Positions 2,534 to 56,436 of a stretch of DNA of 64,000 bases are shown piece after piece. Within the stretch, counting starts at the first letter, position 1; each line of letters opens with the position of its first letter. The stretch covers positions 13,583 to 77,582 of the forward strand of contig DDXW01000042.1 of the NCBI GenBank assembly GCA_002347285.1. The letters run 5' to 3'. Under the pieces are notes generated by a model. It was not told the origin of the DNA. It worked only from the letters and a program-made list of their open reading frames with translations, and did no database searches. This DNA is from Rhodocyclaceae bacterium UBA2250. GTDB lineage: Bacteria > Pseudomonadota > Gammaproteobacteria > Burkholderiales > Rhodocyclaceae. The translations under genes and the position numbers were made by a program.

Positions 2534-2706
2534 CCCGCCAGCCCCGTTTCCGCACCGCTTCCCATCGCATCGCCCCGCGGCCGGACCGCCAGGCGACAAG
2601 CGTTACCGCACAAAACTTTGCGACTATAAATTGAACGGTGGGATAAGTCAATAAATTTATTGCTTCGCAACAATTTTATGGGCTCTCGCCGACCACGGGT
2701 TTGCGC

Positions 2707-2729
2707 GCCGCCCCGCCAGCGCCGAGTCT
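2707..2729 (-). repeat. 23-bp dispersed motif, 1 mismatch; directly after the parB stop
   Basis: Minus strand AGACTCGGCGCTGGCGGGGCGGC. Confidence 0.92.
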
Positions 2730-3581
2730 TCATCCGCGCAGGCGCTTGAGAATGCCGTCGAGCTGGTCGAGACTGGCGAAGCGGATGGTCAGGGCGCCCG
2801 CCCCCTTGCGGTTCGCGCTGACGTTTACGGTGGCGCCGATGGCATCGGACAACTCTTCCTCCAGCCGCTCGAGATCACGGCTCTTCGCTGGCACCGCATG
2901 GTGCGCCGGCGGGTTGAGTTCGCGCGCCACCTTGCGTTCGGTTTCGCGCACCGACCAGCCCTTGTCGGCCACCTCGGCCGCCAGCCTGCCCTGCTCGCTT
3001 TTCGGCGCGGCGAGGATCGCGCGCGCATGGCCCATCTCGATGTCGCCGGCCATCAGCAGATCCTGCGCCGGCTTGGCGAGCTGCAGCAGGCGCAGCAGGT
3101 TGGTCGCGGCCGAGCGCGAGCGGCCGACGGCATCCGCCGCCTGCTGGTGCGTCATGCCGAATTCATCGATGAGGCGTTGCAGGCCGGCCGCCTCCTCGAG
3201 CGGATTGAGATCCTCGCGCTGGATGTTCTCGATCAGCGACATCGCCAGCGCCGCATCGTCGGGAATCTCGCGGATCAGCACCGGCACCTCGCTCAGGCCG
3301 GCAATCTGCGAGGCACGCCAGCGTCGCTCGCCGGCGATGATCTCGTAGCGGCCGCCCGCGACGGGACGCACCGAGATCGGCTGGATCAGCCCTTGCGCCT
3401 TGATCGAGGCAGCCAGATCCTCGAGCGAGCCCGGATCCATGCGCGTGCGCGGCTGGTACTTGCCGGGCTGCAGGTCGCCGATCGGCAGGGTGCCCTGACG
3501 CTGCCGGTCCGCGGTCTCCTCGTTGCCGGCCAGCAATACGTCGAGCCCGCGGCCCAGGCCTTTCATCTTTGGCGGATTCAC
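2730..3581 (-). CDS. parB: ParB/Spo0J chromosome partitioning protein
   Basis: [34 protein letters not shown]; GTG start overlaps the parA stop. The longer ORF-track start is spurious. Confidence 0.96.
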
Positions 3582-52615: not shown

Positions 52616-52825
52616 GGATGGAATCCCTGTTGATGGTGCGTCATGACACTCAAGGAACGTACCACCTGCTGAACCACAAGACGATAATTCTATGTCGATG
52701 AAAAATAACAAAAACTTTTTTTTCTGGCACTCCCCTAAATAATGCATGTCAGATATGACAGTATTTCATGGCGGAATACTGTCAATATGACACTAATTGC
52801 AGCATGCGTAAAAATAGCTTGCGCT

Positions 52826-52862
52826 TGAGAACGATTCTTATATACACTAAGAACTATTCTCA
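52826..52862. promoter_or_regulatory. Two Fur-like boxes upstream of hemP-bfd-bfr
   Basis: TGAGAAC-G-ATTCTTA (52826-52840) and TAAGAAC-T-ATTCTCA (52848-52862), both resembling the 7-1-7 box at 55401. Confidence 0.65.
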
Positions 52863-52869
52863 CTATTGA

Positions 52870-53082
52870 ATGGTGGCGTTCATGAGTGCTCAAGTGATCC
52901 GCCGGTCTGCTCCGCTGGAGGGCAGCCGCGCCCAGGCCAAGCTGGCGGACAAGGTGGCTGCCGCGCATTCGCTCGACACCGGCGTGCTGTTCGCTGGCAG
53001 CAGCGAGGTCGTCATCATGCATGGCCCCGAGATCTACCGCCTGCGCCTGACCCGCCAGAACAAGCTGATCCTGACAAAATAG
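52870..53082 (+). CDS. hemP: Hemin uptake protein HemP
   Basis: [31 protein letters not shown]; may start at 52882. Confidence 0.9.
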
Positions 53083-53094
53083 GAGAGCCGCATC

Positions 53095-53304
53095 ATGTAC
53101 GTCTGCGTCTGCCATGCCGTGACCGAACGCGATATCGAAGGTGCCGTTGCCGGCGGCTGCTGTTCGCTGCGACAATTGCGCGAGCAGCTCGGCGTCGGCA
53201 GCACCTGCGGCCGCTGCACGCGCTGCGCCCGCGAGGCGATGCAGGACTCGCTGCAGCCGCGGGTTTCCCCAACCGGCATGGCGCTGCGAGCCGCAGCGGC
53301 TTGA
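53095..53304 (+). CDS. bfd: Bacterioferritin-associated ferredoxin
   Basis: [10 protein letters not shown]...GSTCGRC. Confidence 0.92.
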
Positions 53305-53318
53305 ACAGGAGAGCGCAC

Positions 53319-54050
53319 ATGAAAGGCGACAAGAAAGTCATCCAGCTGCTCAACAAGTGTCTGGTCAATGAACTGACCGCGATCAACCAGTACTTCCTGC
53401 ATGCGCGCATGTACAAGAACTGGGGCTTCAACGCGCTCGGCAAGCACGAGTACGAGGAGTCGATCGAGGAGATGCACCACGCCGACAAGCTGATCAAGCG
53501 CGTGCTGTTCCTCGAAGGACTGCCCAACCTGCAGGCACTCAACAAGCTGCTGATCGGCGAGAGCGTGCCGGAATGCCTGGCCGGCGACCTCAAGCTCGAG
53601 CACGGCGCGCACGCCGACACCAAGGCCGCGCTGGCGCATTGCGAGGAAGTGAAGGACTATGTCTCGCGCGACATCCTGCAGGACATTCTCGACGACACCG
53701 AGGAGCACATCGACTATCTCGAAACGCAGCTCGAACTGATCGAGAAGGTCGGCTTGCAGAACTACCTGCAAACGCAGATGACCGATCTTTACCTGCCGCA
53801 CGTCGCCTCCTATCTGTTTCCGGCCTGGATCAACGCGCTCGGCAATTCGTGGCGCGTGGTGGTGATGGCCGAGTTGCTCTCCTCGGCCGACGGCATCGGC
53901 GCGGCGCTGGCGGTGTCGCGCAGCCAGCTCGAAATGGAAGCCACGCTGACCTGGATCGCCGCCGTGGTGCTGTCGCTGCTGGCCGTCGAATACCTGCTGC
54001 TGGAGCCGGTCAAGCGTGAAGTGGAACGTTGGCGGGAGACGGAAAGATGA
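53319..54050 (+). CDS. bfr: Bacterioferritin fused in frame to an ABC-permease C-terminus
   Basis: [46 protein letters not shown] (154 codons), then 89 foreign hydrophobic residues. Confidence 0.88.
53781..54050 (+). pseudogene. 3' remnant of a NitT/TauT-type ABC permease
   Basis: [14 protein letters not shown]...[11 protein letters not shown]...GIGAAL resembles the C-terminal segment of SsuC/TauC-type permeases; its stop overlaps the nnrS ATG. Confidence 0.7.
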
Positions 54051-55357
54051 GTCTTCGACTGTGCGGTGCAAGCGGGGGACAACGTGATCGGCCTCGCGCG
54101 GCCGGCGGTCCGCAAAGGCCTGGCATGCTGACCGCCTCGTTGCGCGGCATCGCGTCGCTGCGCCATCCGCTCTGGATGTGCGGCCTGCGCCCCTTCTTCC
54201 TGTTCGCCGCCCTGTCCGCTCCGCTGTTCATGGCGGCCTGGAGTCTGTTTTTGTCAGTCGGCCTGCCGTTGCCCGCAGTCGCCGGCGGCCCCTTCGTCTG
54301 GCATGCGCACGAACTGCTGTTTGGCTTCGCGCTGGCAGCGATGGCCGGCTTCCTGCTCACCGTCGTGCCCGAGTTCGCCGGCGGCGACGATTTCACCGCG
54401 ATACCCGTGCGCCGGCTCGCCGCGCTCTGGCTGTTCGGCCGAGCCGCGTTCTGGACTTCCGGCCTGTACGGCAACGCCGCGCTGGCGCTGGCGGGCGTCG
54501 CGCATCTGGCCCTGCTCGGCGGACTGGCGCTGCTGGCCGCGCCGCGCCTGTGGCGCGATCCGGAGCGCAAGCATCTGGCCTTCCTCTGGGCGCTGACGGG
54601 CTTCGCCGTCTGCATCGCCGGCTTCTACTTCGACGCGCTGCGCGGCGAGCATCCCGCCCGCTGGCTGCACGCCGCCCTCGGCATGTTCATGATGCTGATC
54701 ATCGTCGCCATGAGCCGCATCTCGATGCGCATCGTCAATCACGCGATCGAGGAAGCCGGCATAGTGGGAATCGAATACCGCGCCCGGCCGCCCCGGCGCA
54801 ATCTGGCGATCTTCTGCATCGGACTCTATACGGCGGCCGAATTCCTCGCGCCCGGCGCGCGCCTCGGCGGCTGGCTGGCGCTGGCCGCCGCCGGCGCGCT
54901 GTTCAACCTGATGAACGACTGGCACGTCGGCCGGGCGCTGCTGCGCCAGCGGCCGCTGATGCTCTACTGCGTCTATGTCGCCATGGCGGCGGGCTATGCG
55001 GTCATGGGGCTGTCGCTCGTGTTCGAGACAGGAGCATTCAGCGCTGGCCGCCATCTGCTCACCGTCGGCGCCCTGGGGCTGGCCATCTACGCGGTGATGG
55101 GCATCGCCGGCCGCGCCCATTGCGGCATGCCGTTCGAGACGCGGCGCTGGCTGCCGGCCGGTGCGCTGCTGCTGGTCGCCGCCGCCGTCGTGCGTGCCGC
55201 CTCTGCGTGGCCCGGCGCGGACGCACAGGCATTGCTGGTGGCCGCCGGCCTGCTGTGGACCGCGGCCTACGGCCTGTTCGCCTGGCACATGGCGCCGCTG
55301 TTCCTCGCGCCGCGCGCCGACGGACGCTTCGGCTGCAAGGGCACCGCCATTCCCTGA
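54047..55357 (+). CDS. nnrS: NnrS family protein
   Basis: [40 protein letters not shown]; start may be further downstream. Confidence 0.88.
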
Positions 55358-55398
55358 CCCCCACGAAAAAAATAGTCGCATCAGAAAAATTGTTTTAT

Positions 55399-55417
55399 TA
55401 TGAGAATGATTCTCATA
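55399..55417. promoter_or_regulatory. Fur box
   Basis: TATGAGAAT-G-ATTCTCATA, perfect 9-1-9 inverted repeat 41 bp upstream of the ATG at 55459. Confidence 0.85.
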
Positions 55418-55458
55418 TAATATAGCACTGCATTATCGTTTGCCACGTGGAGAAGTTC

Positions 55459-56160
55459 ATGAAGAAACAGATACAGCATTTCGCCCTGGTCGCCGCGCTG
55501 TCATGCCTGACCGCCCTCCCGGCGCATGCCGAGCCGCCGATGAACGTCGACGACGCCGGCACGCTCGGCAAGGGCGGCCTGAAGGTCGAGGGCGTCCTGG
55601 GCCGCGACGACAAGGAGCGCGGCGGCGAGCTGGTGTTCGGCTTCGCGCCGGTCGATGACGTCGAGATCGGCATTTCCGTCGCGCGCGCCACCGACCATGA
55701 TCCCGATCCTTCCTCCAAGCTGCGCGGCACCGGCATCGGCGTCAAGTGGGTGCCGATCCAGAACGAGTCCGGCTGGTCGCTCGGCGCCAGCTTCGGTTAC
55801 GGCCATACGCGGGTGAATGAGCGTTCGGCGCCGGACAAGTTCACCGAGAAGGAGTACGCCTTCTCCGGCCTTGCCACCTACCGTTTCGAGCCAGGCCAGG
55901 TCGTGCACCTGAACCTCGGCGCGACGCGGGTCAAGGCGCAGGGGGACAGCGATAGCGTCGGCACCTGGGGAGCGGGCTACGAGCATCCCCTCGCGGAAAA
56001 CCTCAAGCTGACGGCGGAAATCTTCGGCGAGGAACATGCCGGACCGGACAAGGCGATCGGCCTGCGCTACGAGATTTTCGAAGGCTTCAAGGTCTCCGGC
56101 GCGGTCGGACGCGGCAACGACCGCAGCTTCGGCCAGGTCGGCTTTTCCTGGGAATTCTGA
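55459..56160 (+). CDS. Putative outer-membrane beta-barrel protein
   Basis: Signal peptide (LPAHA|E), alternating amphipathic strands, C-terminal VGFSWEF beta-signal. Confidence 0.78.
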   Translation: MKKQIQHFALVAALSCLTALPAHAEPPMNVDDAGTLGKGGLKVEGVLGRDDKERGGELVFGFAPVDDVEIGISVARATDHDPDPSSKLRGTGIGVKWVPIQNESGWSLGASFGYGHTRVNERSAPDKFTEKEYAFSGLATYRFEPGQVVHLNLGATRVKAQGDSDSVGTWGAGYEHPLAENLKLTAEIFGEEHAGPDKAIGLRYEIFEGFKVSGAVGRGNDRSFGQVGFSWEF

Positions 56161-56183
56161 AAACTCGGCGCTGGCGGGGCGGC
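56161..56183 (+). repeat. 23-bp dispersed motif, exact; directly after the outer-membrane protein stop
   Basis: TGA|AAACTCGGCGCTGGCGGGGCGGC. Confidence 0.95.
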
Positions 56184-56205
56184 CCCGCATGAAAGGACGG
56201 ACATC

Positions 56206-56436
56206 ATGACGACACTCGGCGAACTCAAGGCGGGCGAAAGCGCCCGCGTTGCCGGATTCACGGTCGATGACGCAGGATATCGACAGCAACTGCTGGCGCT
56301 CGGGCTGACGCCGGGAGCGCGGGTCGACGTCGTGCGCTTCGCTCCGCTCGGCGACCCGATGCAAATCAGCGTGCGCGGCTCGGCCCTGTTTCTGCGCAAG
56401 GCCGACGCCAGCGTCATCCGCGTGGAGAAACTGTGA
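56206..56436 (+). CDS. feoA: Ferrous iron transport protein A
   Basis: LLALGLTPGA, APLGDPM, LFLRKADA. Confidence 0.95.
   Translation: MTTLGELKAGESARVAGFTVDDAGYRQQLLALGLTPGARVDVVRFAPLGDPMQISVRGSALFLRKADASVIRVEKL

Follow-up and report, generated by a model that had tools for sequence, protein, structure and literature searches.

To our knowledge, the only ferritin-like proteins with membrane domains are the MbfA-type membrane-bound ferritins (erythrin-VIT1 fusions), a widespread conserved family in which the membrane part is a complete VIT1 iron transporter. The ordinary bacterioferritin (Bfr) subunit has about 158 amino acids (aa) and a short free C-terminus. In the assembled Bfr cage the N-terminus lies on the outer and the C-terminus on the inner surface, around a cavity 8 nm across (PMC10301331). 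Here we analyse a bfr gene that differs from this pattern. It lies in a 64-kb stretch of contig DDXW01000042.1 from Rhodocyclaceae bacterium UBA2250 (the window, in whose numbering all unqualified positions are given), where an open reading frame (ORF) for 243 aa at 53319-54050 joins Bfr to the end of an ATP-binding cassette (ABC) permease upstream of nnrS. We conclude, with a probability of roughly 0.78, that this ORF is a recent scar left by two deletions in an iron-acquisition cluster.

Results

The bfr reading frame continues into the end of a permease gene

In the ORF reading of the window, the 243 codons run from an ATG at 53319 to a TGA at 54048-54050, and they join Bfr residues 1-154 to an 89-aa tail encoded by 53781-54047. 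The ORF ends at the natural stop codon of the permease gene, which overlaps the next ATG at 54047 (ATGA). The main references for comparison were the metagenome contig L079, which is the same record as L139 (AMWB02064461.1), and L140 (CZVZ01002105.1). The segments on which the argument turns are:

53319-53780, forward strand: bfr codons 1-154 (TIGR00754, 240.8 bits); the last 5-6 codons and the stop are deleted
53779-53782, forward strand: joint of deletion 1, between 53780 and 53781, with about 9.7 kb lost and a 2-nt microhomology (TG); the L079 alignment starts at 53779 and the L140 bfr alignment ends at 53780
53781-54050, forward strand: 3' third of a NitT/TauT-type ABC permease gene (codons 175-263 and stop), in frame with bfr; 97.9% nucleotide (nt) and 98% aa identity to L079/L139
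54047-54062, forward strand: remnant of the ATPase gene (ATG and the next 13 nt, MSLRL...), now in frame with nnrS; identical to L079 1761-1776
54062-54063, forward strand: joint of deletion 2, with 773 bp lost (ATPase gene); L079 1776 is joined to 2550, and the right end lies in a repeat resembling repetitive extragenic palindromic (REP) elements
54063-54124, forward strand: 62 nt that remain of the end of the ATPase gene and of the nnrS leader; identity to L079 2550-2611 about 97%, with two differences at 54067 and 54080
54125-55357, forward strand: nnrS, 410 aa from the start used in relatives, 436 aa from 54047

An open frame across the joint is not remarkable by itself, because an in-frame join is a one-in-three event and one of the two alternative frames at the joint is also open, for 78 codons.

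A preliminary description of this DNA had a Bfr core reading through 53780 without a stop into a permease-like tail, and both halves were borne out. Residues 1-156 of the chimera match TIGR00754 positions 1-156 of 157 with 240.8 bits (cutoff 125.55), with a further match to PF00210, and the Bfr part shares 97% aa identity with the 159-aa Bfr of L001 and with the Bfr of L140. It retains helix E, and residues 1-154 represent a full Bfr subunit. The window reads ...NYLQTQM and then TDLYLPHV..., while the relatives stop 5-6 residues later (...LQTQMGTPES and stop in L001, ...LQSQMGEPSGS and stop in L140). The ferroxidase set and haem ligand described earlier hold in part: the haem axial ligand Met52 is present, as are five of the six ferroxidase ligands (E18, E51, H54, E94 and H130 in E. 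coli numbering), whereas Thr stands at position 127, followed by a Glu at 128. Since Thr127 (53697-53699, motif DDTEEH) is common to 114 of 115 close homologues and to PDB 5ZUR, and occurs in some distant representatives, it is unrelated to the fusion; on these alignments we regard it as a lineage trait. Glu128 is almost invariant. The closest solved structure to the Bfr part is PDB 5ZUR_A, for which a literature search found no publication; others are those from A. vinelandii (2FKZ), P. aeruginosa (BfrB, 3IS7) and E. coli (1BCF).

The identification of the tail as a NitT/TauT-type permease C-terminus likewise held up, as it is 98% identical to residues 175-263 of the 263-aa L079/L139 permease, with two aa differences, and 64-88% identical to permease C-termini in many metagenomes. 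Against BPD_transp_1 it aligns with positions 98-168 of 184 only, at 18.8-20.2 bits and thus below the gathering score of 26.4, and nitrate-type permease models match it below threshold as well. The breakpoint lies inside the EAA loop (...DMAKVFRLPWSMRL / TDLYLPHV), so that the tail keeps the end of this loop and the last two transmembrane helices, while helices 1-4 are gone and the coupling helix upstream of the breakpoint is deleted. The adjacent substrate-binding protein (SBP) and ATPase genes are absent from the window apart from 16 nt of the latter, and no second copy of the permease or of nnrS was found within the 64 kb. Judged from its sequence, the tail falls outside the functional ABC permeases by every measure applied, and it cannot work as a permease because it has neither a coupling helix nor partner genes. 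For the full-length relative, the closest solved structures are NrtB (PDB 8W9M_B) and CmpB (9U9Z_A).

A separate observation concerns how such permeases are annotated. Database homologues of the tail (P0121-P0173) are all at most 156 aa long and mostly cut by contig ends; P0139, P0145 and P0150 begin at the same internal M/V-LLGTPPIAW position, though a longer ORF seems open, and L006 7674-8462 is also concerned. In public annotations the start of the NitT/TauT-type permease may often be set too far downstream.

Independent sequencing runs contain both joints

The preliminary description had left misassembly among its readings. We searched public runs with 53400-54400 and aligned the Logan contigs retrieved, which were built independently of the window's assembly, to the region. 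Both joint 1 and joint 2 (L079 1776 to 2550, skipping 773) are present in contigs of four DNA runs, X1, X2, X5 and X6, which come from three studies (2013-14 hydrocarbon metagenomes and two 2025 projects). X1 yielded one contig of 9,647 bp with 0 differences over 52800-56300 and an even depth of about 27; X2 an 808-bp contig over 53401-54208; X5 a 281-bp contig over 53569-53849 and a 471-bp contig over 53820-54290; and X6 a 193-bp contig over 53657-53849 and a further one of 196 bp. The join in the DNA is real: misassembly is excluded for practical purposes, because independent contigs cross the joints and there is no repeat at joint 1. In X1 there was essentially no coverage of the SBP gene, the 5' part of the permease gene or the ATPase gene, and the fused genome in this sample therefore has no second copy of them at 95% identity or more.

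In the X6 sample the intact-operon allele coexists with the deleted one: a 181-bp intact-permease contig (L079 1383-1563, 0 differences) was found beside the fused form, and L079 559-903 is also covered.

The locus differs from an intact relative by two deletions

The comparison with relatives proposed earlier, for bfr and for an intact ABC-nnrS locus, was answered by L140, which has both on one strand and with which the window is colinear. L079/L139 carries an intact set of genes for a TonB-dependent receptor (TBDR), SBP, permease, ATPase and nnrS, with the receptor gene directly upstream of the SBP gene in L139, and L140 was found as the contig encoding the SBP most similar to that of L079 (P0174). 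L140 opens with the last 95 bfr codons (97% aa identity), followed in the same orientation by a tonB-like gene, exbB, exbD, TBDR, DUF1513, DUF454, a second TBDR, SBP, permease (263 aa), ATPase (286 aa), NnrS (410 aa, 97% aa identity to the window's), ucp (92%), feoA, feoA and feoB. Window 53497-53780 aligns with L140 2-285 at 94.4% nt identity, the match ending exactly at 53780; 53783-54035 aligns with L140 9996-10248 (84%) and 54063-56161 with L140 11052-13147 (94.5%). With L079, 53779-54065 corresponds to 1493-1779 at 97.9% and 54063-54880 to 2550-3367 at 98.5% nt identity. By these alignments the window has the L140 arrangement, from which about 9.7 kb and the ATPase gene are missing. The distance from L140 is the same for bfr (94.4%) as for nnrS-ucp (94.5%), in keeping with vertical descent of both flanks.

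Deletion 1 spans bfr codon 155 to permease codon 174 (L140 286-9993) and took with it the bfr stop and terminator, tonB-exbB-exbD, both TBDR genes, DUF1513, DUF454, the SBP gene and two thirds of the permease gene; its joint has no repeat. Deletion 2 corresponds to L079 1777-2549, 773 bp covering nearly the whole ATPase gene, and its right end falls within a REP-like 23-mer at L079 2532-2554. Alignment to the distant relatives L004, L005 and L007 had been uninformative about ATPase remnants, a question resolved by the 98% relative L079. The earlier idea of a deletion that removed the bfr stop and most of an ABC operon is thus upheld by the colinearity with L140, except that there were two deletions rather than one and that the loss is larger than assumed. 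The event is recent, because the tail is still 98% identical to the intact operon.

The course of events was probably as follows. An ancestor would have had a one-strand cluster of hemP-bfd-bfr, tonB-exbB-exbD, TBDR, DUF1513, DUF454, a second TBDR, SBP-permease-ATPase-nnrS and ucp-feoA(A)B. Deletion 1 (about 9.7 kb, at the 2-nt microhomology) would then have fused bfr codon 154 in frame to permease codon 175, and deletion 2 (773 bp) would have removed the ATPase gene and set its old start in frame with nnrS.

This bears on the start of nnrS. The stop of the chimeric ORF had been described as overlapping the nnrS start; the ATGA overlap is there and the frame does run into nnrS, but the ATG at 54047 is the start of the deleted ATPase gene, and the nnrS start of the relatives is at 54125. 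Because 773 is not a multiple of three, the ATPase start now lies in frame with nnrS, and a 26-aa N-terminal extension of NnrS, including the translation of 54063-54124, is possible if the 54047 ATG is used. NnrS itself matches the whole PF05940 profile (positions 1-371 of 371) with 262.7 bits, more than the gathering score, and is 97-98% identical in aa sequence to NnrS of L073/L079.

REP-like repeats and strain mosaicism at the locus

The repeat family at the right end of deletion 2 is abundant in the window, where the REP-like 23-mer AAACTCGGCGCTGGCGGGGCGGC has 13 copies on both strands against 0 expected. One of them follows ucp directly:

56161-56183, forward strand: REP-like 23-mer AAACTCGGCGCTGGCGGGGCGGC; the repeat in which deletion 2 ends on its right belongs to this family too

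The other 12 are at 2707, 4767, 6871, 8544, 12665, 22200, 27941, 29378, 34619, 45497, 48245 and 59005. Copies also occur in L140, L001 and L012, often right behind stop codons, and many X1 contigs carry the repeat.

Other relatives show that this region varies between strains. After ucp comes one feoA gene in the window (56161-56436) and in L012, but a tandem pair in L140 (13173-13653), L116 and L001-L003. The window's feoA and feoB come nearest to those of L012 (aa identities of 86% and 83%), whereas its nnrS-ucp comes nearest to L140/L116, which makes the locus a mosaic. L012 (1601-7209) belongs to an uncultured Sterolibacteriaceae metagenome-assembled genome (MAG), the closest GTDB representative here; it has the order Rieske gene (reverse strand), ucp, feoA, feoB, nnrS, with no hemP-bfd-bfr and no ABC genes, and its Rieske protein and FeoB are 89% and 83% identical in aa sequence to those of the window. 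Since L012 carries nnrS without ABC genes, nnrS has lost its ABC partners more than once. In L017 (4758-7164, an uncultured Methyloversatilis MAG), two tandem nnrS genes follow the ABC genes; its permease tail shares 96% aa identity with that of the window, its NnrS proteins only 65-69%. Such mosaicism is left unexplained by the deletions alone, and the identity pattern indicates that recombination between strains acted here too.

nnrS belongs to a conserved receptor-transporter operon

A scan for NnrS over one genome per GTDB species gave 65 loci, and one over metagenome contigs gave 66 more. About 55 of the 65 have genes for SBP (PF12974), permease, ATPase and NnrS in this order, and about 50 of the metagenome loci are alike. 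nnrS is the last gene of a conserved operon TBDR-SBP(PF12974)-NitT/TauT permease-ATPase-nnrS in L140 (6438-12346) and about 105 further loci (within L004-L138), whose hosts include Rhodocyclales, Thauera, Comamonadaceae, Ottowia and others. The operon context, together with a motif resembling the Fur box (see below) and the downstream ucp-feoAB in L140, suggests that NnrS is tied to metal uptake, a link of which we found no description in a limited look at the literature.

The fusion is confined to near-identical alleles

Conservation of the fusion across species would speak for a protein family and not for a scar. Among the 8,000 best-scoring Bfr relatives none covers more than 66% of the chimera as query, and when 1.84 billion representative proteins were searched exhaustively with HMMER, the 150 best matches were all confined to residues 1-157. 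There is no Bfr fusion among the 65 GTDB species loci and the 66 metagenome loci, and a degenerate junction pattern had 0 matches in JGI metagenome contigs. With no fusion in the protein and DNA collections searched, the interpretation as a scar stands: all carriers found are near-identical alleles, and the ORF is a strain-level scar, not a new protein family. The tail departs from L079 at 5 positions, of which 3 are synonymous and 2 change an amino acid; 4 differences were counted among the fused alleles of X2, X5 and X6, and X2 has one further derived change, A184V. A profile scan detected no VIT1 domain.

nnrS probably lies downstream of a Fur-box-like promoter

Upstream and downstream of the scar lie the following features:

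52827-52841, forward strand: Fur-box-like motif GAGAACGATTCTTAT, a putative Fur-binding site downstream of a promoter-like site (52787-52815) and upstream of hemP
52870-53082, forward strand: hemP, 70 aa (PF10636, E = 3.6e-15)
53095-53304, forward strand: bfd, bacterioferritin-associated [2Fe-2S] ferredoxin, 69 aa (PF04324, E = 2.3e-8)
55400-55416, strand-neutral: palindromic Fur-box-like motif GAGAATGATTCTCAT upstream of ucp; the same motif precedes ucp in L140 (12388) and L012
55447-56160, forward strand: ucp, outer-membrane beta-barrel-like, family UCP029691; 92-97% aa identity to L073/L116, PF27733 on orthologues

In a scan with the E. coli Fur-box consensus, only the ucp site reached at least 13/19, and a local motif derived from it then found the hemP site specifically. 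When at most 2 mismatches were allowed, 52827 and 55400/55402 were the sole matches to the motif GAGAANGATTCTNAT in the 64 kb. In L140 it precedes the second receptor gene, at the head of the ABC-nnrS operon, and ucp, and in L001 it precedes hemP; the gene order hemP-bfd-bfr is also that of L001-L003. ucp, which shows weak porin and outer-membrane beta-barrel matches, is the right-hand neighbour in the intact and in the deleted arrangements.

We found no terminator-like site from hemP to the end of nnrS, so nnrS is probably now on the Fur-box-like hemP-bfd-bfr promoter, as had been suggested before. Because this motif also stood before the native TBDR-ABC-nnrS operon, regulation likely follows the same logic as before, and nnrS has probably moved from one Fur-type promoter to another. 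The fused bfr'-'permease gene and nnrS would accordingly be transcribed together with hemP. RNA libraries from one soil sample gave contigs with 0 differences to the window, X12 over 53334-53786 and X22 over 53843-54077, which is suggestive of transcription of the fused locus. A further RNA-seq run, X19 (single-organism label), contains a relative of about 95% identity with intact permease and ATPase genes, unfused; its homology to window 53779-54386 starts at 53779 and breaks at 54062/54063.

The tail probably hinders assembly of the Bfr cage

If translated as predicted, the product would be Bfr(1-154) with an 89-aa hydrophobic tail. The hydropathy of the tail shows one clear membrane segment at residues ~205-231 and a weaker one at ~162-186, and a topology suited to membrane tethering, with cytoplasmic Bfr, two helices and a cytoplasmic C-terminus, seems feasible, with no sign of selection for it. 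With Bfr C-termini directed towards the cage interior, the tail probably hinders assembly of the 24-mer. We computed that 24 tails amount to 239 kDa, or about 290 nm3, compared with 268 nm3 for the cavity, and a canonical homo-24-mer is sterically implausible since they exceed its volume. The chimera is more likely a tolerated Bfr, partly impaired or membrane-associated, than a new functional design. The most economical account is that of a tolerated by-product, possibly impaired in cage formation, possibly membrane-associated and possibly degraded, whose tail would have no adaptive role.

Discussion

Three other explanations of the locus deserve consideration. An assembly artefact, in which a chimeric contig joins loci of different strains, would be conceivable for a window that apparently derives from a metagenome and a region that is strain-variable and rich in REP-like repeats, but its chance is negligible: k-mer contigs from three studies (X1, X2, X5 and X6) cross both joints, X1 doing so in a single 9.6-kb contig of even depth, and deletion 1 offers no repeat that could mislead an assembler. 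Import is also unlikely, if far less remote. Here a fragment 'permease-(ATPase)-nnrS-ucp of another strain would have recombined into a hemP-bfd-bfr-ucp-feo locus, with the right end set by homology in ucp/feo and the left end at the 2-nt microhomology (homology-facilitated illegitimate recombination). Such an origin would suit the adjacency of bfr and ucp in several relatives and the fact that the high identity to L140/L116 breaks off precisely with the ucp stop codon, at 56161, which is also the first position of a REP-like repeat. Yet it requires an additional donor and recipient, both unobserved, while L140 links bfr to the operon in one orientation and with the gene order presupposed by two simple deletions; bfr and nnrS-ucp are diverged from it to the same degree. 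The third explanation, a functional new protein in which a two-helix hairpin tethers Bfr to the inner membrane, perhaps bringing iron storage or release close to NnrS or Feo, and which is kept by selection, is improbable. It is compatible with the topology deduced from the permease fold, with the fact that both deletions keep frames, and with the stop/start overlap, which keeps translational coupling into nnrS. Against this, no collection searched holds a homologue of the two halves together, the event is very recent (98% to the intact gene) with an intact allele coexisting in X6, a single segment has hydrophobicity clearly sufficient for a membrane helix, and the Bfr C-terminus faces a cage interior too small for 24 tails; a chance of about 1 in 9 for both outcomes to be in frame is not compelling. 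A particular form of it, a stable membrane-tethered Bfr (a dimer, or a cage with outward-flipped E helices) that places haem and iron handling near NnrS/Feo and explains the persistence of the lineage after the loss of TonB-dependent uptake, we hold to be very improbable.

Several points weigh against a scar left by two deletions, or limit it. Identity to L140 is uneven (84% in the tail, 74-82% in feoAB, 94.5% in bfr and nnrS-ucp), so recombination between strains contributed to the region as well, and the window does not descend directly from L140. This mosaic favours import: the tail is 98% identical to L079 and 84% to L140, ucp has 92-97% aa identity to L073/L116 and 64-67% to L012/L001, and feoA/feoB reach 86%/83% with L012 and only 57%/69% with L140. 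The L139 contig stops short of bfr, so that the linkage of bfr to the operon in that strain is deduced from L140. In L001-L003 and the P0005 contig (97% identical Bfr), the order is hemP-bfd-bfr-terminator-ucp-feoA-feoA-feoB with nothing between bfr and ucp, which makes the block variable; an insertion at this point, considered because of that adjacency, was downgraded since L140 links bfr to the whole block. As regards a functional chimera, samples from no fewer than four studies contain the allele, as do RNA libraries. Because of this distribution and its probable transcription, the allele is not strongly deleterious; the substitutions accumulated since the event are too few to gauge selection. 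The RNA evidence is itself thin, as X12 crosses joint 1 by 6 nt and X22 joint 2 by about 15 nt, and carry-over of DNA is possible.

A recent scar of two deletions thus remains our preferred reading, and it makes the locus an illustration of an iron-acquisition cluster being reshaped by deletions at the strain level: in one lineage a TonB system, two receptors and an ABC importer disappeared while nnrS stayed, and the chimeric bfr arose as a by-product. For annotation, the ORF is best recorded as bfr fused to a permease remnant and not as a new domain architecture, and nnrS as starting at 54125 or flagged with the 26-aa extension. For Bfr biology, the chimera is a natural experiment on whether subunits can still assemble or store iron when they carry a large hydrophobic extension at the C-terminus. 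The position of nnrS in a conserved TBDR-ABC operon with a Fur-box-like motif in many Betaproteobacteria may be of broader interest than the chimera.

Compared with described systems, the Bfr part resembles the TIGR00754 family in its full subunit, its haem ligand and the usual hemP-bfd-bfr gene context, and differs in that the last 5-6 residues and the stop are replaced by an 89-aa hydrophobic extension at a terminus that normally lies inside the 24-mer. With NitT/TauT type I ABC permeases the tail shares 98% identity over the C-terminal 89 residues and the same stop overlapping the ATPase start, but only about one third of the protein is left in the chimera and the SBP and ATPase genes are deleted. 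Relative to the uncharacterised TBDR-SBP-permease-ATPase-NnrS operon of Betaproteobacteria (about 105 loci here), the window keeps the order and orientation of nnrS and ucp-feo, and lacks the receptor, the SBP, most of the permease and the ATPase, nnrS having lost its own operon promoter. MbfA has in common with the chimera an N-terminal ferritin-like four-helix bundle followed by a membrane-embedded C-terminal part; the membrane part of the chimera, in contrast, is a fragment of an unrelated ABC permease and occurs in one lineage only. The closest parallel is with the gene fusions made by deletion, and the REP-associated deletions, known from bacteria, with which the locus shares an in-frame join, minimal microhomology, the loss of a stop and terminator and one end in a REP-like repeat. 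Nothing in it is different in kind, and it is a further instance of this known type of event.

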